The notes under the pieces were generated by a model, which made no database searches, was not told the DNA's origin, and saw only the letters and a list, made by a program, of their open reading frames with translations. Shown in pieces: positions 1 to 20,463 of a stretch of 22,004 bases of DNA (position 1 is its first letter; every line of letters starts with the position of its first letter). Position numbers and translations under genes: made by a program. Origin of the DNA: Candidatus Latescibacterota bacterium (lineage in GTDB: Bacteria; Latescibacterota; UBA2968; UBA8231). The stretch covers positions 1-22,004 of the forward strand of contig CBDETK010000009.1 of NCBI GenBank assembly GCA_965242865.1, read 5' to 3'.

Positions 1-200
1 CCGAAGCCGACGCGGATGGCTTTCCTTCCGGCCCAGCGGACGCGATACGCCCGGCGCATGCGCCCGGTGCGGACCGGGATGGCGGCGCGAAACTGGCGGC
101 CGGTGCGGCCCTTGCGCAGCTCGTTGGCTACGATGTTGCGGATGCGCCAGTTGGCTTGCCGGAAGCGGATGCCCTGCTGCCGGCGGGGGGTCTGGGTCAT
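1..200 (-). CDS. HK97 gp10-like basic virion protein, 5' part (runs off window edge)
   Basis: Same sequence as the 5' end of 20464-20913. ATG at 200, PVRTGRMRR motif. Confidence 0.6.
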   Translation of the reverse strand, partial: MTQTPRRQQGIRFRQANWRIRNIVANELRKGRTGRQFRAAIPVRTGRMRRAYRVRWAGRKAIRVGF

Positions 201-202
201 GC

Positions 203-2725
203 TTACAGCCTCCAGATGGTCAAGGGGGTAGGGTCGCGGTTGGTGCGGTCGGAGGCTATAAGCAGCCGGCGGTCTGAGCTGCGGCGAGCGAAGTAGAAGA
301 TGGTGTCCACGCCCGCGGCTGAGCCGGACCGCAGCTTATAGTCGGCAGCCGCGTAGCCGGCCACGCCAGACGATTGGGTTCCGGCCGTGCTGTGGATCTC
401 GCCGCCGTAGAACATGCGCACGGGCGCGATTTGGCCGCCGATGTTCATGATCCATAAGCCCGTAGCGAAGTTGGACGGCAGCGTGTAGCCGGTGTCCGTC
501 CAGCGGTTGGCGACCGTGATGTCCACGTTGCCCGAAAAGGCAGGAGCCAGCCCGGGGGCGCGGTCGGGGATATCGTCCGAGTGTTGAAAATCGGCCACGA
601 CGTTGGCCGAGAAAGAGCCGCTTCCACTGACTGCGCCAGATTGGCCGCGGTACTCCATGTACAGATAGACATTGCCCTGCCGCGGGTTTTCCGCCGAAGG
701 ACCGCTAATAGCGACATGCAAAAAGAGGAGGCCCTGCCGTTGGGCGCCGCTATATATCCCAAACGCCAGAAGCCCCACTCCTGGCCTACGAGCCAGGACC
801 AAACCGGGTGTCTGTCGCCGTAAATCTGTCATGGAAATAAGCGTCGACAGCCGTGCCGTGCGCTCAACGGCCTCGCTGCTAAAGGATAGGTTGGTCGGCA
901 CCGTGGGCTGGTTTAGCTGAACGCTCGCCTCTACTTCAAGGATGCCCTGAGCAAGGGCGGCGTTGCCCCTAAGTACCTGCGTATTGCTGTACCGAGTGCC
1001 CGTCAAATCGACCAGCGTCGGCACCGGCATCACCCCGTTGTGCAACTCTAGCAAGCCCGCCGAGCGTCCGCCCCCTCCGCTCACCGCGGGCGCGGGTATA
1101 TCCTGCCAAGCAGCCCCGGTCCACCGCTCGAGGTTGGACGGCGCGCTCGCGTCGTAGCGGACGTCGCCGGCCTTTGGCGGCGTCTCGGCAGAAAGCTCGA
1201 CCGGCTCGTCGTACTGGGGCGTGACGACCGCGCCGCCGGGCAGGTTGGCAATCTGCACCTCGAAGTAGTACCACATGGCGTTGGCCGAGTTGGCAATCTC
1301 TTGGAGGCCCGCCAGCGACTGATAGAGGTCGTCGTCGATGTTGAGCCGAAATTTCGTTGGGTCGTTGCCCAAGCTGTTGGCCACCCGCACGATGACATAC
1401 CAGTTCTGGCGGCGCGTGCCGTGCGTTACGGTGTCTGTGTAGCTGGCCGCGGTCGCTTGGTTGGCGTTGCGGCGCGTGGACTGCGGCCCCGAGATCTGCA
1501 GGTCGCCCGAGCGGGCTTCCCAGCCGCCGGCGGTCGTAGCGCGGTCGAGCGCATCGAGCTCTTGGCCCAGCTTGTCGGCGGGGATGTCGTCTTGGTTGCC
1601 TTCTTCGGCCCAGTTGGCTACGCCGGCCTGTACCCGGGCGTCGACCTGCGCTTGCGTGAGGCCGCCGCCGCCGCCGGACGGGGCGTTGCCCAGCTTGTTG
1701 AGCGGGATTTGGTCTGTGTTGCCGTCTTCGGCCCACGTCGCCGGGTCCGGTCCCTCGACCGCGGCCACCCGCGCATCGACCTGCGCTTGCGTAAGCCCCC
1801 CGGATTCATTGGCCCACTCCGCATCGCCGTCGGACGCGGCCTTGAGCACTTGGCCCACGTTCGGGTTGTCGGCCAGGTCGCGCGCGGCGGGCGTATCCCC
1901 TGAGCCTTGGGTAGCCCACGCCTCGACGCGGGCGCCAATGCGGGCGTCGACCTGCGCTTGGGTGAGGCCGCCGCCGCTCGCGGCCGCGGACGTCCGCACC
2001 CGATAGAGGGTAAAGCCCAGCGTACCGGTGCCATCTTGGTTGGCGATCAGGATGGTATTGTTCGCAGAGCGGCCAATCCAGAAGTCGGTGACGTTGTTGG
2101 CGTCCGGCAGCGCAATGACCTCACCGCCGGTGAGCTGTCGCCCCGGGTTGCTTGTTCCCAGCGCGCGAAACTGGGCGGCGTTGATCCAGAAGCTGCGTCC
2201 GTTGTCGAAGTCGAGCACAACCCAGCCGGCGGCGGGTACGACCAGACCGCTGTCTACGCTGGTCGTGCCCGAGGCGTTGAAGACGAAGTTGCTGCCTATC
2301 TGTTCAAAGACGGTCGAGGCCGGCGCGCTGGGCGGCTGCTCGGCGAGGATGCGCCGCACAATCGCCTCGACCGCCTGTTCGTCCACCGGCTGGCCGCCGT
2401 CGCCGGTGGCCGCGGCCACGTCGGCAAGGTCGAAATCGACCGGCGCAACGCCGCGCTGTACCCACGGGTCGACCAGCGCCCGCGCGCCGCTTTCGTTCCA
2501 GGCCACCCCAGAGCGCGTCACGTTGGGCGCGTCGTAGAGATAGCCAGCCACCCTAATAACCGCCTCGTCGCGCACGTCTTCGGGGGCCAGCGGCGCGTAG
2601 GTATCCACCAGCGCACGCCCGACCGCCAACAGGCGCGTGCCAATCGCCGTCAGTTGGGCGCTGACGACCTCGCCTTCGGGCGCGGCCCGTATCGCGTTGA
2701 GCAGTTGGGCAACCGTTAGAGCCAT
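203..2725 (-). CDS. Head-tail adaptor (HK97 gp6/SPP1 gp15-like N-terminus) fused to a long repeat-containing fibre/receptor-binding region, ~840 aa
   Basis: Start is more likely ATG 2725 (MALTVAQLL, GGAG upstream) than 2767. The first ~95 aa (APEDVRDEAVIRVAGYLYD...GARALVDPW) resemble gp6-type connectors. They are followed by 3 GGLTQAQVDAR repeats, Gly linkers, a YDAS...LERWTGAAW fibre-like motif and beta-rich domains. Confidence 0.7.
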   Translation of the reverse strand: MALTVAQLLNAIRAAPEGEVVSAQLTAIGTRLLAVGRALVDTYAPLAPEDVRDEAVIRVAGYLYDAPNVTRSGVAWNESGARALVDPWVQRGVAPVDFDLADVAAATGDGGQPVDEQAVEAIVRRILAEQPPSAPASTVFEQIGSNFVFNASGTTSVDSGLVVPAAGWVVLDFDNGRSFWINAAQFRALGTSNPGRQLTGGEVIALPDANNVTDFWIGRSANNTILIANQDGTGTLGFTLYRVRTSAAASGGGLTQAQVDARIGARVEAWATQGSGDTPAARDLADNPNVGQVLKAASDGDAEWANESGGLTQAQVDARVAAVEGPDPATWAEDGNTDQIPLNKLGNAPSGGGGGLTQAQVDARVQAGVANWAEEGNQDDIPADKLGQELDALDRATTAGGWEARSGDLQISGPQSTRRNANQATAASYTDTVTHGTRRQNWYVIVRVANSLGNDPTKFRLNIDDDLYQSLAGLQEIANSANAMWYYFEVQIANLPGGAVVTPQYDEPVELSAETPPKAGDVRYDASAPSNLERWTGAAWQDIPAPAVSGGGGRSAGLLELHNGVMPVPTLVDLTGTRYSNTQVLRGNAALAQGILEVEASVQLNQPTVPTNLSFSSEAVERTARLSTLISMTDLRRQTPGLVLARRPGVGLLAFGIYSGAQRQGLLFLHVAISGPSAENPRQGNVYLYMEYRGQSGAVSGSGSFSANVVADFQHSDDIPDRAPGLAPAFSGNVDITVANRWTDTGYTLPSNFATGLWIMNIGGQIAPVRMFYGGEIHSTAGTQSSGVAGYAAADYKLRSGSAAGVDTIFYFARRSSDRRLLIASDRTNRDPTPLTIWRL
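1566..1975 (-). repeat. Three intragenic GGLTQAQVDAR(x7-12)WA repeats
   Basis: Cores at about 1633-1666, 1769-1801 and 1940-1972. Two continue as WAE(D/E)GNxDxIPxxKLG. Confidence 0.9.
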
Positions 2726-3264
2726 CGTGATCTCCGTGAAGGTTTCGCCGGCGGCGCGTCGAGCCAACGTTGAATAAACTCGATCTCCGATTGGGGATAG
2801 GCCGGCCGATCGACGATGGAAACGCCCGTTATGGTGGCCTGCTCGATGACGATATCGCGGTGGCCGCGGTCACGGATTTTCTCATCGACAAACTCAATCG
2901 ACAAGCCCCGAAGCGCCCCGCGGTCGATGAGCGCGGCCGCATCGCGCCCCACGGTGGTATCGGGTAGGTCGATCTCGACGAAGTAGCCGCGATCGCGGCT
3001 GTCGAGCCGCAGGCCGCCGTTAGGGTATTGCGCCAGCAATTGCGAGCGGTCGTGCTGGACGGACGCTATCACCCCGCGGTTGTAGGGCGTCAACGCCCCG
3101 CGCTTGAACTGCTCGCGCAAGGCAAACGCGCCCCGGCCTAATCGGGCTACGTCCCCCCAGATAATAGCCGCCCCGCGCACAGTGCCTAACCCCCTCGCTA
3201 GGTCCCCGCTCTCGTTGCGGGTAAAGGCCAGTGGCAGGGCGGCGGATTGTTTGGCCGCGGTCAC
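2716..3264 (-). CDS. HK97-family prohead protease
   Basis: 182 aa with motifs F.EQF..GAL, HD, LPDT..GRD, GLSIEF, VSIVDRPAYP. GTGA overlap with the capsid stop. Confidence 0.92.
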   Translation of the reverse strand: MTAAKQSAALPLAFTRNESGDLARGLGTVRGAAIIWGDVARLGRGAFALREQFKRGALTPYNRGVIASVQHDRSQLLAQYPNGGLRLDSRDRGYFVEIDLPDTTVGRDAAALIDRGALRGLSIEFVDEKIRDRGHRDIVIEQATITGVSIVDRPAYPQSEIEFIQRWLDAPPAKPSRRSRWL

Positions 3265-4533
3265 TTCGCGGTCGCGACGAAGCGGCGGAAGTTAGCCGCG
3301 CGAATGAGGGCGAAATCCCACATCTGAATGATGGTGAGGGCGACTTGGCCCTTGGCCGCGGCCGTGTACGGATCGCGGATGAGCTGCAGGGACGGCCACA
3401 CGGCCGCGATCGCGGCGCCGGCCAGCCCGCGCCCCTTCGAGGCATAGGCCCACTTGTCGCCGTCGGCGAGCTGCCCGCCCGCGATGTGGTTGGACGAGTT
3501 CATCGACAGCCCCTGCATCTTGAGGATGTCGTAGAGGAACATTTCCACGTCCGCATTGACCAACTTCTTGAATGCGACCAGCGAGCTGCTATCCATCGCC
3601 AACTGCACGTCCTCGAGCATGGTCGCGTACACCCCATCAATCGCCGAGAGGACGTCCCCATGGAGGTCTTCGGCGGTCGCCGTCGAGAAGGTGGCTACCG
3701 TCTCGGTCTGGCCGGCCGCCAGCGCGTTGGACAGGCCGTTGGACGTCAGTTGGGCGTTGCCGTTGAAAATCTGGCTGTCCATCTCGTTGGCCAACGCCAT
3801 CGACAAGTCCTGACGAAGCCGCGCTTCCAACTGCGGCAGCCGCGCCAAATCTTCGAGCTCGAACAGGTACCGCGCCGTGATGCGATGCGGATCCATGACG
3901 ACCGTGGAGAGCGTGGCCGCGTCCGCGTCGTGGGCGGCAGCGCGGGCTACGGTGTCCGGGTCGACGCCGCCGGTGAGCACCGTGTGGACGCGCTCGCCCA
4001 CGGGCACGCTCTCGAAGGTGACGCCCAGCCAGCGGGCTATCGACGTGGTGAACACCCGCGCCAGGAAGCGGCCCGAGCTAACCGGCGCGTCCGCGGCGTT
4101 GAAGTCGCTGACCGCATCGGCCCGCTCTTCGGGCGCGACTAACATAATCAGCGGGATATGGCCGGCGTCCGCGGGGATTTTGAACGCTTCGGCCAGCTCT
4201 TTTTCCGCGCCTTCGGCGTTGCGCTGGCTGAGGGCGCTGACGGCGAAATTGGACAGCAGGGCGCGGCAGGATAGCTGCTGCAGCTCGCGGACTTCGGCGT
4301 CCGGGTTGTCGTCGCGCTTTTGTTCGGCGTCCGCGGTGTCTTCGTCCGCCGTCGAGTCGTCGTCCTGGGCTACGAGCGCGGCCCGCAGCTTAGGCTCGAT
4401 GTCCTGCAGCTCGCGGGTGGCTTTTTCCAGCTCAGCAGCTTCCGCGTCTTCGAGCGCGTCTTTTCCCAGCAAATCGTTGACGCGCTGACGAAGCTCGGAC
4501 TGCCGAACTTGGAGTTTCTGCAAAGGGGGTCAA
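3261..4533 (-). CDS. HK97-fold major capsid protein with N-terminal coiled-coil (delta/scaffold) domain
   Basis: ~420 aa: heptad-rich N-terminus, LRQDLSMALANEMDSQIFNGN, C-terminal LIRDPYT.A.KGQV.L.....WDF...R...F. Open from 4523. AGGAGG RBS and copy B (TTG ACC CCT TTG) point to a TTG start near 4533, with one extra G in copy A. Confidence 0.88.
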
Positions 4534-4556
4534 AGGGAAGTCCTCCTGTGAAAGGG

Positions 4557-5528
4557 TTACACAACAACAAATTCAGAACACCGGAGCCGCGCAAACCGCG
4601 CGCGATCTAAGTGCTCTACGCTGTCGACGCGCCAGACGGGGCGGCTGCCGTCCCACACGTCGAACTCGGATAAGAGGGCGGTCAAGGGCGGCACGTGGTC
4701 GCGGCGGACGATAAAGTCGGTAACGCGCCGCACCGTCGCTTGCGTGTCGCCTTGCTCATCGACCGTGTAATCGACGGTCTCGACCTCGCTGTCGTCGCGG
4801 CGGCTGAACAGGCGGCGGGCGGTAAACGGGCCTTCCGATTGGGGTTGTTGACCATAAAAGACGGGCACGGTGCGTAGGGTAACGAAGTCGGTAGTATCGG
4901 CGGCATCCCCCAACGCAAACAGCGCGGCTTCTTCGGTGCGCGTCACGTTCGTCTCGAAGTACAAAAGCTGCCTACGACTTGAGCCAAACGAGCCGCTCTT
5001 GGCTTGCGAGGTCAGCCCAAACCGGACGCGGCGGCGGCCCAGCGCTATCTCTATGGTCTGAACCGCAGGATAGTCCGACGGAAAAAGCGCCCCCGTGCTC
5101 AGGTCGTCTTCGGCGGCAATGACATTGGGCGGGATAGGCAAGCCCGGCCCAATCGCCCAGCCCACCGAGGGAATAGCGGCAAACGACACTCCAATCGACC
5201 CGCTACCAGCAACAGCCACCGCATTGGTCGGCTGGATGAGCAGTCGTTCGCCGGCGGTACGGGGACTGACAATATCCTTGACGAACGCAAACGCCCATGG
5301 GTCTGTGTTCTCGTTGGCCCACTGTATCCAATCCAACTGCCCACGTGGGGGCAATTGATCGTTGTAAAAAAGAGTCCTGGTCTCGAAACGCCCTTCCCAT
5401 ACGACGTTGGGCGTAATGCGCGGTAAGCCCTGATCTGCAGGCGGCACCGTAAGCGTCTGCGCGGGCACGCCATCCCCGACGTCTTTCCACGTCAACACCC
5501 CGTCGAGCGGATTTAGAATCTCGGTCAT
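4557..5528 (-). CDS. Virion protein, 323 aa; C-terminal ~100 aa resemble a head-closure (SPP1 gp16/HK97 gp7-like) domain, N-terminal ~220 aa unknown
   Basis: ATGA-coupled to the HNH gene. The C-terminus TDFIVRR...WDG...WRVDSVEHLDRARFARLRCSE follows the head-tail joining protein pattern. Confidence 0.55.
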   Translation of the reverse strand: MTEILNPLDGVLTWKDVGDGVPAQTLTVPPADQGLPRITPNVVWEGRFETRTLFYNDQLPPRGQLDWIQWANENTDPWAFAFVKDIVSPRTAGERLLIQPTNAVAVAGSGSIGVSFAAIPSVGWAIGPGLPIPPNVIAAEDDLSTGALFPSDYPAVQTIEIALGRRRVRFGLTSQAKSGSFGSSRRQLLYFETNVTRTEEAALFALGDAADTTDFVTLRTVPVFYGQQPQSEGPFTARRLFSRRDDSEVETVDYTVDEQGDTQATVRRVTDFIVRRDHVPPLTALLSEFDVWDGSRPVWRVDSVEHLDRARFARLRCSEFVVV

Positions 5529-5806
5529 AGCCCCTGCAACCTATCGTCCCATTCGAGTTTACGCGCTTTCACCTCGCGGCTCGTTTTTGCAATATGGCAC
5601 CCCCGGCACAAGGCCTGCAAATTGTGTAGCGACCAGAAGGGGCCGCCTTCGCGCCAATTCTTGACGTGATCGCACTCCAATCGACCAGCCCGCCCGCACT
5701 GGCGGCAGCGCCAGCCATCGCGCTCAAACACCTGCCGCCGAAGCTGTCGCCAGCGCGGAAGCTGGTAGTTGCGCCGCGCTTGGCGCACGCTGACGGAAGG
5801 CTTCAC
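5525..5806 (-). CDS. HNH endonuclease (terminase-associated, HK97 gp74-like)
   Basis: RWRQLRRQVFERDGWRCRQCG...ECDHV...NLQALCRGCHIAKT. Adjacent to terL. Confidence 0.93.
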   Translation of the reverse strand: MKPSVSVRQARRNYQLPRWRQLRRQVFERDGWRCRQCGRAGRLECDHVKNWREGGPFWSLHNLQALCRGCHIAKTSREVKARKLEWDDRLQGL

Positions 5807-5846
5807 GTTTTTTTTTCCGCTTTTAGGCCTGACAAACGATTAAGCT

Positions 5847-7448
5847 TCACGCCAACACCACCCGCGCCCGCGGCAATCCAATCGTCCCCAGCAATAGCTC
5901 GCCCAGCCCCGCGGCAATCACCCCAGCCTGCAGTACGTCGATGCGCCCCCGCGAGCGGGAGCGTTCCAGCGCGGGGTTGCCCGCCGGATCCCGGCGAATC
6001 GAGGATTCGCGTACCGCACTTTCGAATAGCAGGCTTTCTGCCATCGACCAGTCGGCGCGCAACACGTAGCGCTGGAACGCTCGGACATCGTGGCTGCCGT
6101 CGGCCCCGGCGGACGCGCCCTGCCCGCGGTAGACCATCGGCCAACTGATGGCCGCCTGCTGCAGGGCTTGGGCGGCTTCGGCCGCCCGATAGCGGTCGCA
6201 TCCGGCAGCCGACACTTCCTGATTTTTTAGCTGGTCCGCGCAGTCAAGCAGAAATTCTCCGACCGGCGTCACTCGACCCGGGTACACCTTCAGCTCGCCG
6301 CGATCGGCCATGCGCTGGTACAGGCCGCCCACCCCATCGCGGGCACCGCGGTCGATTAAATTCGGCGTCGAGGGGAACGCGCCCCATGCTTCGGCCCGTC
6401 CCGTAGCTGGCCAAAAAGCGACCAGCGCGGTCATACTCGATGCGCCCCCCAGGTCGAAGCCAATCACGCACGGCCCCCTTCGCGGCGCAGGCTCTTTGTG
6501 CACGCACGCCATCCAATCGGTTAAGCTGCACAAACTTTCACGCGATGGATCCTGGGGCTGGTTGAGGTCGTAGGCGCGGAACGAGGGCTGATCGGCGGGG
6601 CTGTCGAGCGCCCGTTGCGCCATGTCGCGCATATACTCCATGGACTTAATGCCGCGGCGTAAACCCGGATTAGCCGCATGCCAGGTCTGGGGCTGGTCGA
6701 TGGCCGCGGTCAACGGCGCGGCATATTCATGCCAGCAGACTCCGCGCTGAGCGCGGTCGCGCATCTCCTTGAACATCGGCCCCATCCCCTGAATGCTGAT
6801 GCAGAGCAAGCGCCCGTTGCGACCGCTGGTCGAGGACAGCACCGCGTTCCATAGCTCGCGGTGTGTCTCTTCGAGCAAGCCGGCCTCATCGATAATCGCT
6901 AAGTCGCTGCCGATGGCGTGCCCGGTCGCGCGGTCGCTGGCGAGGAATTTGACCGCGGCCCCGCGGTCGCCTTCGACGCGACCCGGTTGGGGCGTTTGCC
7001 GGTCGATTATTTCGAAGCCGCTCGCTTCGGCCGTTAATGAGATGGCCAGCCGCAGCTCTTTGGCCAGCTCGCCAGTCAGGCTGATGACGACCCCGCGCCA
7101 ATCGGGCCGATTGAGCGGCCCCACCAAGTGGCCCAGCACGTAGGCGGCTATTAGGCCAGACTTCCCATTCTTCCGCGCCACCGACAGCCCGCTTTCGCGC
7201 GCAGTGTGCGCTTCGCGGAGGAAGTGCTGCTGCCAATCGTCAATCAGGAAGGGTTCGCCCTGCAACGGCCCCGAGGGCACTTTCAGCTTGGCTTCGGCCC
7301 ACGCAAAAAAGCCGTCGAGGTCCGGTTCATACTCGGCTGCCGAACGCAGACATACGGACGCAGCGGCCTTTTTCTCCTTCTGCTTGCGCCGCCACTCACG
7401 CATATACGCCGCGTGATTGGCCCTTCTTTTTTTGGTCTCGTCCTTCAC
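5847..7448 (-). CDS. terL: Terminase large subunit (HK97/cos-type family)
   Basis: 533 aa with adenine-binding motif (PFLIDDWQ), Walker A VARKNGKS, Walker B LAIIDEAG, motif III ISIQG, W.AANP.L, nuclease GFDLG and C-terminal RID. Confidence 0.95.
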   Translation of the reverse strand: MKDETKKRRANHAAYMREWRRKQKEKKAAASVCLRSAAEYEPDLDGFFAWAEAKLKVPSGPLQGEPFLIDDWQQHFLREAHTARESGLSVARKNGKSGLIAAYVLGHLVGPLNRPDWRGVVISLTGELAKELRLAISLTAEASGFEIIDRQTPQPGRVEGDRGAAVKFLASDRATGHAIGSDLAIIDEAGLLEETHRELWNAVLSSTSGRNGRLLCISIQGMGPMFKEMRDRAQRGVCWHEYAAPLTAAIDQPQTWHAANPGLRRGIKSMEYMRDMAQRALDSPADQPSFRAYDLNQPQDPSRESLCSLTDWMACVHKEPAPRRGPCVIGFDLGGASSMTALVAFWPATGRAEAWGAFPSTPNLIDRGARDGVGGLYQRMADRGELKVYPGRVTPVGEFLLDCADQLKNQEVSAAGCDRYRAAEAAQALQQAAISWPMVYRGQGASAGADGSHDVRAFQRYVLRADWSMAESLLFESAVRESSIRRDPAGNPALERSRSRGRIDVLQAGVIAAGLGELLLGTIGLPRARVVLA

Positions 7449-7546
7449 TTTTTCATGCCCACGTGAAAGCGCGTGTTCCCCCTTGTGCGGTTTGTCCCCC
7501 TAGGCGCGACCGCCACAGGGGTCCCCGCCGCCGCCCCCGCCGTCCC

Positions 7547-7732
7547 CTTTCCACACCATCTTGTGGAAAAGATAGCAAGATGTATGGGCATCGCTAGTTT
7601 TCCACATTCTTTCCACATCCTTTCCACATCCTTCCTTCATAGGCGGGTCCACAAATCCACAGCCCCTAGTAGTGGTAAGGACAAATCCACAGCCTTGGAT
7701 CGTAGTACTAGGGGCTGTGGATTTGTGGATAA
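7547..7732. promoter_or_regulatory. DnaA-box-like array, candidate replication origin
   Basis: Perfect TTATCCACA on the minus strand (7724-7732), TTTTCCACA at 7598-7606 and 7562-7570 (minus), CTTTCCACA at 7547, 7609 and 7620, plus several AAATCCACA/TCCACA. About 10 TCCACA cores in 186 bp. Confidence 0.75.
7648..7729. repeat. Perfect 24-bp inverted repeat with an internal 14-bp direct copy
   Basis: tccacaaatccacagcccctagta (7648-7671) is the reverse complement of tactaggggctgtggatttgtgga (7706-7729). acaaatccacagcc is repeated at 7681-7694. Confidence 0.93.
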
Positions 7733-7794
7733 AAAAAAGTGCTGGACATCCGCAGACACATCATATTTATTTGTCTGTGCAATCAGGAGGCTCT

Positions 7795-7962
7795 ATGAAC
7801 TGTGCAGTCTGCGGCAGCCCAATCGATGGGTATCGCCGTGCCTTAAACCCTCGCATCAAGACGTGCTCGCCGCCCTGCTCAAAGCGCCACGCCATGAATC
7901 TGCGGAACTTGGCCGCGCGGAATAAGCGTAAACGCGAGCGCGCACAAAGAAAGGAGCGATGA
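7795..7962 (+). CDS. Small Cys4 zinc-finger protein with basic tail, 55 aa
   Basis: AGGAGG at 7785-7790 and ATG at 7795. CAVC...CSPPC then RNKRKRER. ATGA-coupled to the lysozyme. Confidence 0.75.
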   Translation: MNCAVCGSPIDGYRRALNPRIKTCSPPCSKRHAMNLRNLAARNKRKRERAQRKER

Positions 7963-8540
7963 TGGTAGAGCATGCCATCCTCGTTTCCGTCCTCAAATCG
8001 GAGGGCGGCTACGTCAACGACCCCAACGACAGCGGCGGCGAGACCTATGCCGGCATTGCCCGGCACTACAATCCCGGCTGGGAAGGCTGGGACGAAGTGG
8101 ACCGCTGGACCGGCAATAAGAACTCGCCAGACTTGCAAGACTTGCTGATGCCCATGCTGCTGCGTTTTTGGGATACTTACCTGAAGTCCAACCATATCGA
8201 GCACGTGCCGGGGCCGTTGCGGCTTCAGTACGCGCACATGGCCGCAACCAGCCCCAAGCGCGCCATCGCCGCCCTGCAGCAATTGGTGGTGTGGACGAAT
8301 CCCCTGTTGGGGTCGCCGAAGTTCGTCGATGGGCTGTGGGGCAGGAATACCCGGCAGGCCGTAGAGGACTGGTTGTCACCGGACCTCAACGCATCCGACA
8401 TGCAGAAGGGCTACTGCATAGCCTGCATAGCCCTGTACTGCGACTCGGTACGGGATCGTCCGAGTAATCAACGCTTCCTGCATGGTTGGGCGCGCCGGAC
8501 CGTCGCTGTCTGGCAAGAGGCGATCGGCCATGCAGCTTGA
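7959..8540 (+). CDS. Glycoside hydrolase family 108 lysozyme (endolysin) with C-terminal peptidoglycan-binding region
   Basis: EGGYVNDPNDSGGETYAGI catalytic motif, VDGLWG.NT, RFLHGW.RR. GGAG RBS. Confidence 0.92.
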   Translation: MMVEHAILVSVLKSEGGYVNDPNDSGGETYAGIARHYNPGWEGWDEVDRWTGNKNSPDLQDLLMPMLLRFWDTYLKSNHIEHVPGPLRLQYAHMAATSPKRAIAALQQLVVWTNPLLGSPKFVDGLWGRNTRQAVEDWLSPDLNASDMQKGYCIACIALYCDSVRDRPSNQRFLHGWARRTVAVWQEAIGHAA

Positions 8541-8700
8541 AACGTGGCTATACATTCCGCTCGACGACGAGGTGCCGCTGAGGATACGACTTCAGCTGCG
8601 CACTCCCATCGGAAAATTCAAAACGGTGATAGGCTTTTGCTCGATTACTATTCACAATCGAGAGTGTAAGCCGCGCTGGAGAGGCATCGCATTAAATTAG
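8530..8700 (+). CDS. Hypothetical protein, 56 aa
   Basis: GAGG at 8517-8520 and ATG at 8530 overlapping the lysozyme end. Intact in both copies, no recognisable motif. Confidence 0.4.
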   Translation: MQLETWLYIPLDDEVPLRIRLQLRTPIGKFKTVIGFCSITIHNRECKPRWRGIALN

Positions 8701-8838
8701 TTTAGCGACTTGGCTAAATCGCCCGTCGCTACCCCTGTCGGCACCGGAATGCTGGATCGATGGCCAGCTAATGGGGACAGAAGAGCGGATAAAAGCCGAA
8801 TAAACGCTCTCGTTTTTCCCCTATGAAGAACGATCCAA

Positions 8839-8866
8839 ACTAACGATAAATCCTATTATCGTTCGT
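8839..8866. other. dif-like / tyrosine-recombinase-type site (11-6-11)
   Basis: ACTAACGATAA-ATCCTA-TTATCGTTCGT. The ATAA-N6-TTAT core is as in E. coli dif (GGTGCGCATAA-TGTATA-TTATGTTAAAT). Arms extend to a 12/13 inverted match (8837-8868). Confidence 0.55.
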
Positions 8867-8901
8867 TTGTACGGCTTATGAAGTCCAGTCGAGAATTTCG
8901 A

Positions 8902-10026
8902 TCATGCTTCTTGTTCCATTAGGCCCGAAAGGGCCGCCGCTTTGTCCACCGCCATACCCCCCCCAACCATCGATTGAAACGCCCGCGCACGCCCGCTTAA
9001 ATCGGACGCGAACAGGCGGTCGAAGTTAAGCTGCACGCGCTCGTCCAGCTTGATCGACAGCTCTTCAGCTACGATTTCAGCTACGGGCTGAATCGTCCCA
9101 TGCAGGAAGCGTCGCCAGCTCTCGCGCTGGCTGGTTCCGTCCGAACTTTCTTCGAGTAACGCGGGCGGCACGCCCAACGCCGCGGTGATGATGCGGCTGA
9201 CTTCTACGCGGAGCGTCCCTAAGCTGTCGGGGGGATTGGGGCCTATCCGCTGGGGCGTCCAGTCCTGCCGCGGCGCGGAAAAGCGCCCTTCGCCCCAGCC
9301 GCTGGCCGTGGTCTCAACGAGCACCGTTTTGCCGCGGATACTGCCGAGTGCTTTGCGGGTGTCTTCCAGCGGATCGTACATCGTGCCGTCGGGCTTTTGC
9401 CGCGGGGAAGGGTCGCGCGGCAAGGCAATGATATTGCCTACCTGCGCGGCCGCTTCTTCGCCCAGCCGCGTCTCCAGCAGGTTGGCCAAGCGTTGGGTCG
9501 CCGCCGCGCGCTCCAGCGGCGCTTGGCCCTTCCAGGGCTGCTCAGGGCGGCGGCCAATCATAAAATGCAGCACGCCATCCCAGGGCGCGCGGCGCGTGCG
9601 GTTGCCCGAAGGCCCCAGCACGTCGAGCCGATAGCGCCAGCGCTGAGGATGGACGCCCGGGCCGTTGACCTCCCACGACGAAGCAATCCCCGCGGCGAGC
9701 ATCCCGTCGTCGAGCACGTCGAGCAGCCAGCAGCTTTCGCCCGTATAGACAAATTCGCGGGCTACCAGCCCCAGCATCGACGGACCGCACACGCCCTGCG
9801 CTCGGCGCCCGCGCACGGTCGCGGAGGCAAAGGCGCGCTCCCACAAGCCCGCGCACGCTTCTTGGGCGGCCAGCCCCGCGCGGATGGCTTCGTTGCTGGC
9901 TTGGGCCTGCTCCTCGACGGCGCGCTCAATGGCGGAGGAGAAGGAGATGGCGCGCCACTCGGCGAGCGCCAGTTGATGGACGCGCTGGCGGAGGACCGCG
10001 GGCCGAAACCAATCGAGGGCCTTCAC
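8902..10026 (-). CDS. Portal protein (HK97-like, short), 374 aa
   Basis: Likely GTG start at 10026, GTGA-coupled to the upstream ORF. Motifs GVLHF......PW.G.APL, I.AALGVPP.LL, F...TIQP....AEELS.KL, D...RA......V.GG. Confidence 0.88.
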   Translation of the reverse strand: MKALDWFRPAVLRQRVHQLALAEWRAISFSSAIERAVEEQAQASNEAIRAGLAAQEACAGLWERAFASATVRGRRAQGVCGPSMLGLVAREFVYTGESCWLLDVLDDGMLAAGIASSWEVNGPGVHPQRWRYRLDVLGPSGNRTRRAPWDGVLHFMIGRRPEQPWKGQAPLERAAATQRLANLLETRLGEEAAAQVGNIIALPRDPSPRQKPDGTMYDPLEDTRKALGSIRGKTVLVETTASGWGEGRFSAPRQDWTPQRIGPNPPDSLGTLRVEVSRIITAALGVPPALLEESSDGTSQRESWRRFLHGTIQPVAEIVAEELSIKLDERVQLNFDRLFASDLSGRARAFQSMVGGGMAVDKAAALSGLMEQEA

Positions 10027-10154
10027 TTGTGATGCTTCCGCTCGCGCTTGCGCCGGTGATGCTCGGCGTGAACCAGCTTGCCCAGCATGGCCGTGCAGAA
10101 AATGGTTAGGACATCGAACAGGTCGATGCCCTCTTGGATGAGCCAATCGCCCAT
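10023..10154 (-). CDS. Small membrane protein, 43 aa (holin-like candidate)
   Basis: GAGGAGG RBS and ATG at 10154. One hydrophobic stretch (LFDVLTIFCTAMLGKLV) followed by HHRRKRERKHHK. Confidence 0.55.
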   Translation of the reverse strand: MGDWLIQEGIDLFDVLTIFCTAMLGKLVHAEHHRRKRERKHHK

Positions 10155-10167
10155 AGGGGAAACCTCC

Positions 10168-10617
10168 TCAGAGCAGTTGTAGTGCGATACGCGCCAGCGG
10201 ATGCGAGCCAAACGTCAAGCGTATCAGCTTCTTGAGCGTGAAGGTGCGGGCCGCCTTGCGACGGAGGGCGCGGCCGGTCTTGTCGAGCTTTTCTTGGAAC
10301 ACCGCCCTCGCAATGCGCCCAGACTGGCGGGCAAACGCCAGCCTATAGGCCCTACGGATGGCCTTGACCGCGCGCAGGCGCCAGATGAACTGATAGACCC
10401 AGTAGGGAACGCGGCTGCCGAAGCCGACGCGGATGGCTTTCCTTCCGGCCCAGCGGACGCGATACGCCCGGCGCATGCGCCCGGTGCGGACCGGGATGGC
10501 GGCGCGAAACTCGCGGCCGGTGCGGCCCTTGCGCAGCTCGTTGGCTACGATGTTGCGGATGCGCCAGTTGGCTTGCCGGAAGCGGATGCCCTGCTGCCGG
10601 CGGGGGGTCTGGGTCAT
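10168..10617 (-). CDS. HK97 gp10-like, highly Arg-rich virion/neck protein, 149 aa
   Basis: AAIPVRTGRMRRAY resembles the gp10 PVxTGxLRxS motif, followed by VGF....PYW.Y. Starts 2 nt after the fibre gene stop. Confidence 0.6.
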   Translation of the reverse strand: MTQTPRRQQGIRFRQANWRIRNIVANELRKGRTGREFRAAIPVRTGRMRRAYRVRWAGRKAIRVGFGSRVPYWVYQFIWRLRAVKAIRRAYRLAFARQSGRIARAVFQEKLDKTGRALRRKAARTFTLKKLIRLTFGSHPLARIALQLL

Positions 10618-10619
10618 GC

Positions 10620-13134
10620 TTACAGCCTCCAGATGGTCAAGGGGGTAGGGTCGCGGTTGGTGCGGTCGGAGGCTATAAGCAGCCGGCGGTCTGAGTTGCG
10701 GCGAGCGAAGTAGAAGATGGTGTCCACGCCCGCGGCTGAGCCGGACCGCAGCTTATAGTCGGCAGCCGCGTAGCCGGCCACGCCAGACGATTGGGTTCCG
10801 GCCGTGCCGTGGATCTCGCCGCCGTAGAACATGCGCGCGGGCGCGATTTGGCCGCCGATGTTCATGATCCATAAGGCCGTAGCGAAGTTGGACGGCAGCG
10901 TGTAGCCGGTGTCCGTCCAGCGGTTGGCGACCGTGATGTCCACGTTGCCCGAAAAGGCTGGGAATAGGTCGGTCGGGGATATCGTCCGAGTGTTGAAAAT
11001 CGGCCACGACGTTGGCCGAGAAAGAGCCGCTTCCACTGACTGCGCCAGATTGGCCGCGGTACTCCATGTACATATAGACATTGCCCTCCCGCGGGCTTTC
11101 CGCCGAAGGACCGCTAATAGCGACATGCAAAATGAGGGAGCCCTGCCATTGGGCGCCGCTATATATAAAAAACCCCAGAAGCCCCACTCCTGGCCTATTA
11201 GCCAGGACCAAACCGGGTGTCCGTCGCCGTAAATCTGTCATGGAAATAAGCGTCGACTGCCGTGCCGTGCGCTCAACGGCCTCGCTGCTAAAGGATAGGT
11301 TGACCGGCACCGTGGGCTGGTTTAGCTGAACGCTCGCCTCTACTTCAAGGATGCCCTGAGCAAGGGCGGCGTTGCCCCTAAGTACCTGCGTATTGCTGTA
11401 CCGATTGCCCGTCAAATCGACCAGCGTCGGCACCGGCATCACCCCGTTGTGCAACTCTCGCAAGCCCGCCGAGCGTCCGCCCCCTCCGCTCACCGCGGGC
11501 GCGGGTATATCCTGCCAAGCAGCCCCGGTCCACCGCTCGAGGTTGGACGGCGCGCTCGCGTCGTAGCGGACGTCGCCGGCCTTTGGCGGCGTCTCGGCAG
11601 AAAGCTCGACCGGCTCGTCGTACTGGGGCGTGACGACCGCGCCGCCGGGCAGGTTGGCAATCTGCACCTCGAAGTAGTACCACATGGCGTTGGCCGAGTT
11701 GGCAATCTCTTGGAGGCCCGCCAGCGACTGATAGAGGTCGTCGTCGATGTTGAGCCGAAATTTCGTTGGGTCGTTGCCCAAGCTGTTGGCCACCCGAACG
11801 ATGACATACCAGTTCTGGCGGCGCGTGCCGTGCGTTACGGTGTCTGTGTAGCTGGCCGCGGTCGCTTGGTTGGCGTTGCGGCGCGTGGACTGCGGCCCCG
11901 AGATCTGCAGGTCGCCCGAGCGGGCTTCCCAGCCGCCGGCGGTCGTGGCGCGGTCGAGCGCATCGAGCTCTTGGCCCAGCTTGTCGGCGGGGATGTCGTC
12001 TTGGTTGCCTTCTTCGGCCCAGTTGGCTACGCCGGCCTGTACCCGGGCGTCGACCTGCGCTTGCGTGAGGCCGCCGCCGCCGCCGGACGGGGCGTTGCCC
12101 AGCTTGTTGAGCGGGATTTGGTCTGTGTTGCCGTCTTCGGCCCACGTCGCCGGGTCCGGTCCCTCGACCGCGGCCACCCGCGCATCGACCTGGGCTTGCG
12201 TGAGGCCGCCGGATTCATTGGCCCACTCCGCATCGCCGTCGGACGCGGCCTTGAGCACTTGGCCCACTTGCGGGTTGTCGGCCAGGTCGCGCGCGGCGGG
12301 CGTATCCCCTGAGCCTTGCGTAGCCCACGCCTCGACGCGGGCGCCAATGCGGGCGTCGACCTGCGCTTGGGTGAGGCCGCCGCCGCTCGCGGCAGCCGCC
12401 GTCCGCACCCGATAGAGGGTAAAGCCCAGCGTGCCGGTGCCATCTTGGTTGGCGATCAGGATGGTATTGTTCGCAGAGCGGCCAATCCAGAAGTCGGTGA
12501 CGTTGTTGGCGTCCGGCAGCGCAATGACCTCACCGCCGGTGAGATGTCGCCCCGGGTTGCTTGTTCCCAGCGCGCGAAACTGGGCGGCGTTGATCCAGAA
12601 GCTGCGTCCGTTGTCGAAGTCGAGCACAACCCAGCCGGCGGCGGGTACGACCAGACCGCTGTCTACGCTGGTCGTGCCCGAGGCGTTGAAGACGAAGTTG
12701 CTGCCTATCTGTTCAAAGACGGTCGAGGCCGGCGCGCTGGGCGGCTGCTCGGCGAGGATGCGCCGCACAATCGCCTCGACCGCTTCTTCGTCCACCGGCT
12801 GGCCGCCGTCGCCGGTGGCCGCGGCCACGTCGGCAAGGTCGAAATCGACCGGCGCAACGCCGCGCTGTACCCACGGGTCGACCAGCGCCCGCGCGCCGCT
12901 TTCGTTCCAGGCCACCCCAGAGCGCGTCACGTTGGGCGCGTCGTAGAGATAGCCAGCCACCCTAATAACCGCCTCGTCGCGCACGTCTTCGGGGGCCAGC
13001 GGCGCGTAGGTATCCACCAGCGCACGCCCGACCGCCAACAGGCGCGTGCCAATCGCCGTCAGTTGGGCGCTGACGACCTCGCCTTCGGGCGCGGCCCGTA
13101 TCGCGTTGAGCAGTTGGGCAACCGTTAGAGCCAT
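10620..13134 (-). CDS. Adaptor/fibre fusion, allele B; apparent frameshift near 10960
   Basis: A 19-nt segment of A is replaced by 11 nt (net -8). Removing one G from the ggg run gives in-frame DIPDRPIPAFSG, so the gene is probably intact with a read error. Confidence 0.65.
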
Positions 13135-13673
13135 CGTGATCTCCGTGAAGGTTTCGCCGGCGGCGCGTCGAGCCAACGTTGAATAAACTCGATCTCCGAT
13201 TGGGGATAGGCCGGCCGATCGACGATGGAAACGCCCGTTATGGTGGCCTGCTCGATGACGATATCGCGGTGGCCGCGGTCACGGATTTTCTCATCGACAA
13301 ACTCAATCGACAAGCCCCGAAGCGCCCCGCGGTCGATGAGCGCGGCCGCATCGCGCCCCACGGTGGTATCGGGTAGGTCGATCTCGACGAAGTAGCCGCG
13401 ATCGCGGCTGTCGAGCCGCAGGCCGCCGTTAGGGTATTGCGCCAGCAATTGCGAGCGGTCGTGCTGGACGGACGCTATCACCCCGCGGTTGTAGGGCGTC
13501 AACGCCCCGCGCTTGAACTGCTCGCGCAAGGCAAACGCGCCCCGGCCTAATCGGGCTACGTCCCCCCAGATAATAGCCGCCCCGCGCACAGTGCCTAACC
13601 CCCTCGCTAGGTCCCCGCTCTCGTTGCGGGTAAAGGCCAGTGGCAGGGCGGCGGATTGTTTGGCCGCGGTCAC
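13125..13673 (-). CDS. HK97-family prohead protease (copy B)
   Basis: Translation identical to 2716-3264. Confidence 0.92.
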   Translation of the reverse strand: MTAAKQSAALPLAFTRNESGDLARGLGTVRGAAIIWGDVARLGRGAFALREQFKRGALTPYNRGVIASVQHDRSQLLAQYPNGGLRLDSRDRGYFVEIDLPDTTVGRDAAALIDRGALRGLSIEFVDEKIRDRGHRDIVIEQATITGVSIVDRPAYPQSEIEFIQRWLDAPPAKPSRRSRWL

Positions 13674-14943
13674 TTCGCGGTCGCGACGAAGCGGCGGAAG
13701 TTAGCCGCGCGAATGAGGGCGAAATCCCACATCTGAATGATGGTGAGGGCGACTTGGCCCTTGGCCGCGGCCGTGTACGGATCGCGGATGAGCTGCAGGG
13801 ACGGCCACACGGCCGCGATCGCGGCGCCGGCCAGCCCGCGCCCCTTCGAGGCATAGGCCCACTTGTCGCCGTCGGCGAGCTGCCCGCCCGCGATGTGGTT
13901 GGACGAGTTCATCGACAGCCCCTGCATCTTGAGGATGTCATAGAGGAACATTTCCACGTCCGCATTGACCAACTTCTTGAATGCGACCAGCGAGCTGCTA
14001 TCCATCGCCAACTGCACGTCCTCGAGCATGGTCGCGTACACCCCATCAATCGCCGAGAGGACGTCCCCATGGAGGTCTTCGGCGGTCGCCGTCGAGAAGG
14101 TGGCTACCGTCTCGGTCTGGCCGGCCGCCAGCGCGTTGGACAGGCCGTTGGACGTCAGTTGGGCGTTGCCGTTGAAAATCTGGCTGTCCATCTCGTTGGC
14201 CAACGCCATCGACAAGTCCTGACGAAGCCGCGCTTCCAACTGCGGCAGCCGCGCCAAATCTTCGAGCTCGAACAGGTACCGCGCCGTGATGCGATGCGGA
14301 TCCATGACGACCGTGGAGAGCGTGGCCGCGTCCGCGTCGTGGGCGGCAGCGCGGGCTACGGTGTCCGGGTCGACGCCGCCGGTGAGCACCGTGTGGACGC
14401 GCTCGCCTACGGGCACGCTCTCGAAGGTGACGCCCAGCCAGCGGGCTATCGACGTGGTGAACACCCGCGCCAGGAAGCGGCCCGAAGACTAACCGGCGCG
14501 TCCGCGGCGTTGAAGTCGCTGACCGCATCGGCCCGCTCTTCGGGCGCGACTAACATAATCAGCGGGATATGGCCGGCGTCCGCGGGGATTTTGAACGCTT
14601 CGGCCAGCTCTTTTTCCGCGCCTTCGGCGTTGCGCTGGCTGAGGGCGCTGACGGCGAAATTGGACAGCAGGGCGCGGCAGGATAGCTGCTGCAGCTCGCG
14701 GACTTCGGCGTCCGGGTTGTCGTCGCGCTTTTGTTCGGCGTCCGCGGTGTCTTCGTCCGCCGTCGAGTCGTCGTCCTGGGCTACGAGCGCGGCCCGCAGC
14801 TTAGGCTCGATGTCCTGCAGCTCGCGGGTGGCTTTTTCCAGCTCAGCAGCTTCCGCGTCTTCGAGCGCGTCTTTTCCCAGCAAATCGTTGACGCGCTGAC
14901 GAAGCTCGGACTGCCGAACTTGGAGTTTCTGCAAAGGGGTCAA
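13670..14943 (-). CDS. Major capsid protein (copy B), split by 2 extra nt near 14485-14488
   Basis: cccgaagactaacc vs cccgagctaacc in A. ORF halves are 14446-14943 and 13670-14464. Confidence 0.8.
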
Positions 14944-14966
14944 AGGGAAGTCCTCCTGTGAAAGGG

Positions 14967-15938
14967 TTACACAACAACAAATTCAGAACACCGGAGCCGC
15001 GCAAACCGCGCGCGATCTAAGTGCTCTACGCTGTCGACGCGCCAGACGGGGCGGCTGCCGTCCCACACGTCGAACTCGGATAAGAGGGCGGTCAAGGGCG
15101 GCACGTGGTCGCGGCGGACGATAAAGTCGGTAACGCGCCGCACCGTCGCTTGCGTGTCGCCTTGCTCATCGACCGTGTAATCGACGGTCTCGACCTCGCT
15201 GTCGTCGCGGCGGCTGAACAGGCGGCGGGCGGTAAACGGGCCTTCCGATTGGGGTTGTTGACCATAAAAGACGGGCACGGTGCGTAGGGTAACGAAGTCG
15301 GTAGTATCGGCGGCATCCCCCAACGCAAACAGCGCGGCTTCTTCGGTGCGCGTCACGTTCGTCTCGAAGTACAAAAGCTGCCTACGACTTGAGCCAAACG
15401 AGCCGCTCTTGGCTTGCGAGGTCAGCCCAAACCGGACGCGGCGGCGGCCCAGCGCTATCTCTATGGTCTGAACCGCAGGATAGTCCGACGGAAAAAGCGC
15501 CCCCGTGCTCAGGTCGTCTTCGGCGGCAATGACATTGGGCGGGATAGGCAAGCCCGGCCCAATCGCCCAGCCCACCGAGGGAATAGCGGCAAACGACACT
15601 CCAATCGACCCGCTACCAGCAACAGCCACCGCATTGGTCGGCTGGATGAGCAGTCGTTCGCCGGCGGTACGGGGACTGACAATATCCTTGACGAACGCAA
15701 ACGCCCATGGGTCTGTGTTCTCGTTGGCCCACTGTATCCAATCCAACTGCCCACGTGGGGGCAATTGATCGTTGTAAAAAAGAGTCCTGGTCTCGAAACG
15801 CCCTTCCCATACGACGTTGGGCGTAATGCGCGGTAAGCCCTGATCTGCAGGCGGCACCGTAAGCGTCTGCGCGGGCACGCCATCCCCGACGTCTTTCCAC
15901 GTCAACACCCCGTCGAGCGGATTTAGAATCTCGGTCAT
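14967..15938 (-). CDS. 323-aa protein with head-closure-like C-terminus (copy B)
   Basis: Translation identical to 4557-5528. Confidence 0.55.
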   Translation of the reverse strand: MTEILNPLDGVLTWKDVGDGVPAQTLTVPPADQGLPRITPNVVWEGRFETRTLFYNDQLPPRGQLDWIQWANENTDPWAFAFVKDIVSPRTAGERLLIQPTNAVAVAGSGSIGVSFAAIPSVGWAIGPGLPIPPNVIAAEDDLSTGALFPSDYPAVQTIEIALGRRRVRFGLTSQAKSGSFGSSRRQLLYFETNVTRTEEAALFALGDAADTTDFVTLRTVPVFYGQQPQSEGPFTARRLFSRRDDSEVETVDYTVDEQGDTQATVRRVTDFIVRRDHVPPLTALLSEFDVWDGSRPVWRVDSVEHLDRARFARLRCSEFVVV

Positions 15939-16216: not shown

Positions 16217-16256
16217 GTTTTTTTTTCCGCTTTTAGGCCTGACAAACGATTAAGCT

Positions 16257-17858: not shown

Positions 17859-17889
17859 TTTTTCATGCCCACTGTATGGGCATCGCTAG

Positions 17890-18024
17890 TTTTCCACATT
17901 CTTTCCACATCCTTTCCACATCCTTCCTTCATAGGCGGGTCCACAAATCCACAGCCCCTAGTAGTGGTAAGGACAAATCCACAGCCTTGGATCGTAGTAC
18001 TAGGGGCTGTGGATTTGTGGATAA
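17890..18024. promoter_or_regulatory. DnaA-box-like array (copy B, lacking the two leftmost boxes)
   Basis: Same as 7598-7732. TGTGGATAA at 18016-18024. Confidence 0.72.
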
Positions 18025-20450: not shown

Positions 20451-20463
20451 AGGGGAAACCTCC

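Follow-up and report, generated by a model that had tools for sequence, protein, structure and literature searches.

The basal unwinding system (BUS) of bacterial chromosomes, with its DnaA-trios, reportedly goes back to Richardson et al. in 2016. In Escherichia coli, oriC carries helically phased arrays of low-affinity DnaA boxes, which lie 2 bp apart in the same orientation. Here we describe an array of DnaA-box-like sequences in the control region of a phage-like element that is present in tandem in the window, by which we mean the whole 22,004-nt stretch of DNA that was analysed (contig CBDETK010000009.1 of the Candidatus Latescibacterota assembly GCA_965242865.1). Three of the element's 9-mers are likewise co-oriented and 2 bp apart, although, unlike in E. 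coli oriC, the surrounding region (7449-7794) contains no site resembling that of integration host factor (IHF), the IHF-like pattern having eight matches in the window and none in this region. The array also resembles the BUS of the B. subtilis type, which consists of DnaA-boxes #6 and #7, a GC-rich spacer and DnaA-trios; in the available part of the source (Pelliciari et al. 2021, PMC8287927) the order and orientation of these parts, the 12-nt spacer and the 17-nt box pair are the same as in the element. In contrast to the chromosomal BUS, the module of the element is doubled as a perfect palindrome in which the trios face each other with no AT-rich stretch beyond them, one of its three right-hand trios is TAC and not TAG or TAA, and it is found on a 10.4-kb phage-like element instead of between dnaA and dnaN.

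DnaA boxes are also part of the replication control regions of mobile elements such as RK2, pSC101, P1 oriR and lambda, as they are here, but in those origins DnaA assists an element-encoded Rep protein that acts on iterons, whereas in the present element neither a Rep nor separate iterons were found and trios are present. The element-encoded initiator that characterizes an iteron-type replicon was not recognized, in that none of 11 open reading frames (ORFs) matched a replication family in Pfam and PHROGs profile searches, with ORFs lacking a family remaining among them; an earlier note on this DNA, made from its sequence, had stated that there is no Rep gene, and this holds as far as the profile searches reach. 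According to the portion of a 2024 review on which we draw (PMC10797057), DnaA has not been shown to interact with a plasmid's single-stranded unwinding element. T5-like phages resemble the element in that their injection-stop region has a cluster of consensus and variant DnaA boxes within inverted repeats, in untranslated DNA near a genome terminus (10.1101/866236). The boxes of T5, however, are paired 3 bp apart, the available part of that preprint describes no trios, T5 has replication genes of its own, and the authors argue against a role as an origin (10.1101/866236). In gene content the element can be compared with the Streptomyces satellites MiniFlayer and MulchRoom, which, in the accessible part of their description (PMC10690885), have a small genome that encodes terminase, portal, protease and capsid and includes no replication module. 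In comparison with such capsid-encoding satellites, a likeness drawn from gene content, the window element lacks an integrase and has, in addition, an endolysin and a long protein that resembles a fibre. Phage-inducible chromosomal islands that form capsids (cf-PICIs) share similar satellite features.

We read the array (7547-7732) as a probable DnaA assembly site and replication origin of a phage-like element without an initiator of its own, fired by the DnaA of the host, and consider the chances that this is correct to be even. DnaA boxes on plasmids and phages are already known as helpers of an element-encoded Rep; what appears to be new is a complete unwinding module of boxes, spacer and trios on a virus-like element without a recognized Rep, in this case in a single metagenomic sequence. 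Full-text literature searches, which in part covered the best-ranked matches only, turned up no account of a phage or satellite that carries a BUS or DnaA-trios.

A palindromic pair of BUS-like modules

The array occupies the non-coding region between a probable cohesive-end (cos) site and the divergent plus-strand operon. It contains a perfect inverted repeat (Table 1), which is predicted to fold as single-stranded DNA at -31.5 kcal/mol (z = -5.7), a value that was equalled by none of 200 shuffled sequences. On the right, the window reads TAG TAC TAG / GGGC / TGTGGATTT / GTGGATAA through positions 7703-7732, which can be parsed as three DnaA-trios (7703-7711), a GC cluster (7712-7715), a box TGTGGATTT (7716-7724) and a box TGTGGATAA (7724-7732), the last being the perfect TTATCCACA on the minus strand. 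The mirrored module on the left, read on the minus strand, consists of the trios TAC CAC TAC TAG (7677-7666), the GC cluster GGGC (7665-7662), the box TGTGGATTT (7661-7653) and a degenerate box GTGGACCC (7653-7645) with three mismatches to the consensus. The modules are oriented towards one another over 7666-7711, and the centre of the palindrome contains an additional box-like 9-mer, AAATCCACA, at 7683-7691.

The BUS rule, as set out in the available part of PMC8287927, calls for a DnaA box with at most two mismatches and allows an optional second box with at most four; for a spacer of 0-16 nt, most commonly 13, about 4 nt of which form a GC-rich stretch; and for three or more NAN DnaA-trios (in B. 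subtilis, three are the fewest that give activity), with the trio consensus 3'-G/A-A-T-5'. In the element, the box at 7724-7732 on the minus strand has no mismatch to TTATCCACA, the second box (TGTGGATTT at 7716-7724) has two, and the spacer is 12 nt long and ends in the four bases GGGC. The trios number three on the right and four on the left, and three of these seven fit the narrow consensus. The boxes, spacer and trios of the right arm strengthen the DnaA-box reading that had been offered in the earlier note. Defined strictly, as a box with no more than one mismatch, a second box offset by 8 with no more than two, a 4-mer with three or more G or C, and three in-frame NAN, the layout occurred in none of 3000 Markov-1 random sequences of 10.4 kb. 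The module lies between the terminase and zinc-ribbon genes of the 10.4-kb unit, and the stretch that it faces is not AT-rich. Because it is not beside dnaA or dnaN and an AT-rich region is lacking, we would class the array as a look-alike of the oriC BUS on a mobile element and not as a chromosomal oriC.

Two further considerations were set aside. The palindrome might have been a transcription terminator, but an A8 run lies 3' of it on the plus strand and the corresponding T8 lies 5' of it on the minus strand; this candidate was rejected because neither strand gives a hairpin followed by a T-run. The objection that boxes offset by 8 nt cannot both bind DnaA was dropped, as real oriC sequences show the same offset.

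Composition and layout of the DnaA-box array

The hexamer TCCACA occurs 24 times on the two strands of the window, against 6.38 +/- 2.39 in shuffled sequences, of which none of 100 reached this number. Ten of the 24 fall within 180 bp (7550-7729), as the earlier note had counted approximately, eight lie in the matching stretch of the second tandem copy (17893-18021) and six are scattered. Two of the ten cores are in a 118-bp segment (7463-7580) that is missing from copy 2. In copy 1, exact matches to the consensus TTWTNCACA were found at 7562-7570 (minus strand, TTTTCCACA), 7598-7606 (plus strand, TTTTCCACA) and 7724-7732 (minus strand, TTATCCACA), in agreement with the one perfect TTATCCACA and two TTTTCCACA noticed earlier, and matches with one mismatch at 7547-7555, 7609-7617 and 7620-7628. 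The degenerate consensus is not enriched across the window, with 17 matches where 11.6 are expected and 9 of 100 shuffles reaching 17; the signal of the array is its clustering together with the TCCACA core.

In all, the array contains ten box-like 9-mers. The three that end at 7606, 7617 and 7628, for which an 11-bp period had been noted and is borne out, have the same orientation as both boxes of the left module, from which they are separated by 16 nt. The boxes on the left side point to the right and the two on the right side point to the left, so that all of them face 7666-7711.

Matches to chromosomal oriC sequences

The BUS scaffold of B. subtilis is given in the supplement to PMC8287927, as far as available, as trios / GGCC / TGTGGATTT / GTGGATAA, and the rows for B. 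licheniformis, Listeria, Deinococcus and Treponema have the same layout with a 12-nt spacer. Compared with these entries of the supplement, the right module has the same 17-nt box pair as the B. subtilis scaffold, and its first 24 nt are identical to the B. licheniformis row. The 8-nt offset of the boxes is shared by the right module and the rows for B. subtilis, Listeria and B. licheniformis, and the spacers of B. subtilis and Listeria are also 12 nt long.

A sensitive blastn search with 7449-7794 matched 11 records of a plasmid collection. Four of them match 7701-7732 and derive from Listeria (two records), Priestia and Subdoligranulum; the three of these four that were checked all have the match between dnaA and dnaN (by annotation for Listeria and Priestia, by Pfam searches of the flanking genes for Subdoligranulum), and they are pieces of chromosome filed as plasmids. 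Six records, in which the GC-rich left part of the query matches polyketide synthase or hypothetical genes, were treated as chance. The remaining record matches the three-box array in a spacer of a Clostridium plasmid; in this Clostridium baratii sequence (L077, 2501-2534) three TTTCCACAT boxes with an 11-bp period are found in an unannotated spacer adjoining a helix-turn-helix (HTH) gene. When the search was repeated with 7696-7740, the plasmid collection returned the same records and an unverified match in Acetoanaerobium, and in the phage collection the sole match that covered both trios and boxes was an 'UNVERIFIED' record holding dnaA-dnaN-recF. The blastn search of 7449-7794 against phages gave no match at E <= 1. 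Matches of 18-23 nt in unannotated plasmid DNA and of 17-20 nt in the phage collection were set aside as chance. The plasmid records L075, L076 and L078 and the phage record L079 ('UNVERIFIED Bacteriophage sp.') contain dnaA-dnaN, in some cases with recF, and have the look of chromosome pieces.

The probable plus-strand leader and a possible regulatory role for DnaA

Beyond the perfect box lie an A8 run (7731-7738) and an AT-rich patch, both of which had been pointed out before and are present; the patch at 7755-7775 has 29% G+C, against about 64% for the element. The earlier note had set them beside the unwinding element that adjoins the boxes of oriC. Unlike its reading of the DnaA boxes, which is strengthened, this part of its interpretation is not supported, as the patch lies behind the perfect box and the trios of the BUS are on the opposite side, towards 7666-7711. 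From its position, the A8/AT stretch is probably the promoter (-10) and leader of the plus-strand operon, although a scan for sigma-70 promoters found no site there. The patch ends 23 nt 5' of the start codon of the zinc-ribbon gene, and it seems to be kept in the read-through N-terminus of a zinc-ribbon homologue that is 71% identical.

This arrangement bears on a second reading, in which DnaA binds the array as a regulator or is held there as in a sink, and does not initiate replication. The divergent operons would then be tied to the DnaA-ATP state of the host, or DnaA would be titrated as by datA, with disturbance of host initiation. The array fills the sole control region from which both operons diverge (TerL and head genes to the left, zinc ribbon and endolysin to the right), its perfect box is situated just upstream of the plus-strand AT patch and ribosome-binding site, there is no AT-rich unwinding element, and relatives do without the array. 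Boxes by themselves would suffice for binding or titration, however, while a GC cluster and in-frame trios, both present twice, are features of an unwinding module. The datA locus carries an IHF site, whereas 7449-7794 contains nothing like one, and a scan of 7350-7900 found no sigma-70-type promoter (and no intrinsic terminator). On this evidence we regard a regulator or sink as unlikely, although a serious contender.

Related loci and the initiator slot

Homologues of the large terminase (TerL) of the element numbered 699 at E <= 1e-3, and many of the best 120 are on contigs of 9.5-12 kb. The nearest are 87%, 87% and 66% identical and lie on contigs of 10,113, 6,263 and 10,717 nt, to which a 21,965-nt contig can be added; the zinc-ribbon gene is kept in the nearest relatives and is 71% identical on the 10,113-nt contig. 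A scan of reference genomes with the TerL sequence alone gave no loci, and a profile scan based on an alignment gave 74, of which L001-L015 form a close family with TerL proteins 44-57% identical. Members of this family share the gene order TerL, HNH, a variable gene, capsid, protease, adaptor or fibre, and portal. What lies between portal and cos differs among them; in the window this slot holds the array, the zinc ribbon and the endolysin.

In two members of the family, the slot contains a protein of 155-171 amino acids directly upstream of cos (L005, 9853-10368; L010, 10177-10644), which resembles the N-terminal domain of lambda O. These two proteins are 45% identical to each other, match HTH_36 at E = 6e-13 and 2.5e-8, and match PHROG 1032/270/391 (replication initiation protein and replication initiation O-like) at E = 9e-15 and 2e-11. 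The array is therefore situated where relatives keep a replication function. A tblastn search of the window with the O-like initiators revealed no counterpart (E > 1).

Conservation in relatives, proposed in the earlier note as a check, was not observed: no cluster of TCCACA, no cluster of 9-mers and no BUS occurs in any of the 15 loci. Single 9-mers with at most one mismatch occur six times in the approximately 230 kb of these loci, and two TGTCCACA-type cores in inverted arrangement close to the cos-like motif are present in L004 alone. The array thus appears to be specific to the present lineage and not a feature of the family. L004 (10505-10850) and L008 (3927-4270) share a conserved piece of non-coding DNA, about 300 nt long and located upstream of cos, that contains (GACC)4 repeats and several hairpins and, further on, an inverted GCTGTCCACATG pair around another hairpin. 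This piece may represent a control region or a structured RNA.

The family includes L001, a member that bears on a third reading. L001 (6568-16800, in the chromosome of a Dehalococcoidia metagenome-assembled genome) is a roughly 10-kb island between metabolic and ABC-transporter genes. Apart from a tyrosine integrase and an HTH protein, which occupy the slot on the other side of TerL, it carries only the head module (TerL, HNH, capsid, protease, adaptor and portal), and in its gene content it is similar to a capsid-forming satellite. The window element could similarly be a satellite that is copied by the machinery of a helper phage, in which case the oriC-like piece would be a recently captured fragment of a host, with little or no function, or an anchor on which membrane-bound DnaA holds the end of the genome that is injected first, as has been proposed for the boxes of phage T5. 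Satellites with capsid genes and without replication genes exist (PMC10690885, in the part available), the available part of the T5 preprint proposes pairs of DnaA boxes in inverted repeats near the terminus as an injection stop (10.1101/866236), and the array is lineage-specific. A passive fragment would not be expected in the form of a perfect palindrome extended by phased boxes, though, no helper is known, and the T5 idea is itself a proposal. The array is also identical in tandem copies that differ by about 1% elsewhere, which is a weak point, as about two differences would be expected per 214 nt. We hold this third reading to be very doubtful.

The probable cos site and a possible role in packaging

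The motif GGGGACCCCTG (Table 1) is found exactly once, just upstream of TerL and on the TerL strand, in 9 of the 15 related loci (L003-L008, L010, L011 and L015). The short-read contigs L004, L005 and L010 end 10-31 nt past the motif and start 90-107 nt before the TerL match, and a gap of 18 nt separates the ends of L004 when they are compared with the related L008. L007 is circular, with a self-overlap of 49 nt that contains the motif. Because an HK97-type terminase, an adjoining HNH endonuclease and contigs that end past the motif occur together, the element would have defined cohesive ends just downstream of GGGGACCCCTG, and in these features, with the ends being deduced, it corresponds to HK97-like cos packaging. 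In a third variant of the junction, the TerL of another contig of about 22 kb reads through the cos region; this variant retains the two boxes of 7547-7570 and lacks about 85 nt including the motif. The junction variants are either biological or artefacts of assembly.

A small terminase gene was not found among the ORFs of the unit in the Pfam and PHROGs searches. The N-terminus of TerL (7371-7448) carries a basic motif, A-A/Y-Y-x-R-E/D-W/Y-R-R/K-K, ahead of the ATPase domain, which is kept in all seven sequences examined (window, L004, L005, L010, L012, P0002 and P0004). Because no small terminase was found, this basic extension may take its place. The basic helix at the C-terminus of the zinc ribbon resembles the TerL extension.

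Between the array and the probable cos site there are 20-210 bp, and the start of the array is 21 bp away from the cos-like motif. This proximity gives rise to a fourth reading, raised in the earlier note for terminase and the zinc-finger protein, in which the repeats bind a protein of the element itself (the zinc ribbon, the basic N-terminus of TerL or an unrecognized small terminase) as a cosB-like packaging site or a transcription switch, and their likeness to DnaA boxes is a coincidence. In addition to its closeness to cos, this reading can draw on the failure to find a small terminase gene, the basic TerL motif (7/7 sequences) and the adjacent zinc-ribbon gene that is kept in the nearest relatives. 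Direct repeats arrayed every 11 bp, like those of the element, typically go with small architectural proteins of phages. However, this reading would require a chance match over 30 nt to the trios, GC cluster and box pair of oriC (0/3000 random sequences). In lambda, the cosB repeats are located between the cut site and the terminase genes, whereas the array and TerL lie on opposite sides of the cos motif; neither this layout nor a small terminase was found here. Moreover, relatives with the same cos motif lack the array, e.g. L010, in which the divergent gene and the cos-like motif are only about 70 nt apart. A role of the array as a binding site for an element protein therefore seems improbable to us.

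The tandem element and its genes

When the window was compared with itself, 1-7462 proved 99.2% identical to 10418-17872, 7581-11700 proved 98.9% identical to 17873-22004, and 1-1291 was exactly the same as 20714-22004. By these matches, the window comprises a 10.3-10.4-kb unit that is repeated in tandem, in about 2.1 copies. Apart from the 118 bp (7463-7580) that are missing, copy 2 differs from copy 1 mainly by small indels and about 1% of substitutions, and 7581-7794 is the same in both (214/214 bases). Copy 2 is frameshifted in the genes for the capsid, the 854-aa protein, the zinc ribbon and the endolysin, mostly at homopolymers. Because the missing 118 bp are centred on the cos-like motif, the 20.7-kb repeat has a single such motif. 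Copy 2 reflects either a long-read consensus artefact or the genuine structure of a dimer that has one cos site.

The genes of the unit (Table 1) form two transcription units that diverge from 7449-7794 and converge at about 8700-8900, the sole two sizeable non-coding stretches. Neither an integrase nor a repressor nor a replication protein was recognized among the ORFs (Pfam and PHROGs). The closest TerL proteins of cultured phages, at 27% identity, are those of HK97-like cos phages, and megablast of the whole unit against 50,697 phage records gave no nucleotide match. Rfam returned no matches on 1-10500 at E <= 0.1, and a scan for tRNA and tmRNA genes was likewise negative.

Table 1. Features of the element, in coordinates of the window
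Feature	Position	Strand	Remarks
Inverted repeat, perfect, 24 nt, with 34-nt centre	7648-7671 / 7706-7729		
Right BUS-like module	7703-7732	+	Trios, GC cluster, box pair
Left, mirrored BUS-like module	7645-7677	-	Inverted-repeat arm; trios read from sequence
Three DnaA-box-like 9-mers, 11 bp apart (TTTTCCACA, CTTTCCACA, CTTTCCACA)	7598-7628	+	
Inverted box pair: CTTTCCACA (+, 7547-7555), TTTTCCACA (-, 7562-7570)	7547-7570		Inside 118-bp segment absent from copy 2
Near-palindromic motif GGGGACCCCTG, candidate cos recognition/cleavage signal	7516-7526	-	Once in window
118-bp segment, copy 1 only, centred on cos-like motif	7463-7580		Flanked by 7-nt inverted repeat ATGCCCA/TGGGCAT
A8 run (7731-7738), AT-rich patch (7755-7775, 29% G+C), AGGAGG (7786-7791)	7731-7794	+	5' of zinc-ribbon start codon
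Large terminase (TerL), first gene of minus-strand structural operon	5847-7448	-	PHROG 9, E = 4e-54; basic N-terminal extension
HNH endonuclease	5525-5806	-	PF01844
323-aa protein (p323)	4557-5528	-	No family match; between HNH and capsid
HK97-fold capsid protein	3261-4523	-	Profile search
S78 prohead protease	2716-3264	-	Profile search
854-aa protein (p854)	203-2767	-	
gp10-like protein, weak match	10168-10617	-	
Portal	8902-10146	-	
55-aa zinc-ribbon protein, basic C-terminal helix	7795-7962	+	No family match
GH108/PG_binding_3 endolysin	7959-8540	+	Profile search
72-aa ORF 3' of endolysin	within 7959-8700	+	No family match

Three of the proteins were considered further. The zinc ribbon yielded hypothetical proteins and a weak NinG lead in the protein Atlas; its AlphaFold2 (AF2) model (predicted local distance difference test score, pLDDT, 75) has a knuckle and a long helix and found no match at E <= 0.001 when compared with the PDB by Foldseek. 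The p323 protein has just six relatives among 1.8 billion representatives, and its AF2 model (pLDDT 69) is rich in beta structure and gave weak Foldseek matches to phage neck proteins (best E = 0.011), which is a lead, and no proof, that it may be structural. It seems to evolve fast, in that a contig with a TerL that differs by one residue has a p323 only 42-49% identical. The p854 protein is kept in relatives over its first ~100 residues only. In L001 (14860-15162) this N-terminal part is a separate gene of 100 aa in the interval between protease and portal, with the look of a head-tail adaptor, and in the window the protein joins it to a long C-terminal part in which GGLTQAQVDARV units recur and which may be a fibre.

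Discussion

Having weighed a regulator or sink for DnaA, a satellite with a captured or anchoring fragment and a binding site for an element protein, we return to the array as an origin that is fired by host DnaA. In the mechanism that we propose, the cos ends would join, after which host DnaA-ATP would occupy the boxes. DnaA would then oligomerize from the box pairs onto the trios and open the 46 bp between the arms (7666-7711), and extrusion of the palindrome may assist in the opening. DnaA would recruit the helicase of the host, and for this reason the element would need no Rep. Later, rolling-circle copying would yield concatemers to be cut at cos by terminase and HNH; the window is itself a tandem assembly of this kind. 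An evolutionary extension of this proposal is that a cos-packaged mini-phage or satellite exchanged its own lambda-O-like initiator for a palindromic double copy of the unwinding module of the host chromosome and became a 'minichromosome' fired by host DnaA, a suggestion that we make tentatively, with expectations somewhat short of even.

Several observations weigh against an origin. Beyond the trios there is no clearly AT-rich unwinding element; the stretch between the arms has 46% G+C, is bounded by the mirror module and holds another box in its centre. The trios number only three to four per arm, which is the published minimum, and 5.1% of random sequences of 10.4 kb contain a chance match to the published rule in its loose form. 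About 50 bp separate the perfect box from the likely plus-strand promoter downstream of it, and regulators are normally found at such positions; the array also adjoins the probable cos site, where it may have a role in packaging. No BUS or box cluster is found in the 15 related loci with TerL proteins 44-57% identical. An initiator was recognized in two of these loci. Because the other 13, of which seven were scanned in the slot, show no recognized initiator, the family may replicate otherwise, e.g. via a helper phage. Finally, the zinc ribbon, the 72-aa ORF or the C-terminus of p854 could be a new initiator.

The sequence evidence is nevertheless unusually specific for an array of this kind, and the module, at about 140 bp, is small enough for synthesis and direct assay. 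If our reading is true, this would be the first BUS with DnaA-trios that works outside a chromosome, and its symmetry could permit the loading of helicases in both directions. A working module would offer a compact, natural and symmetric substrate for the study of DnaA opening and the loading of two helicases. It would also mean that a mobile element can live on the initiator of its host alone, and that 'own initiator' and 'borrowed initiator' would be exchanged as modules within one phage family.

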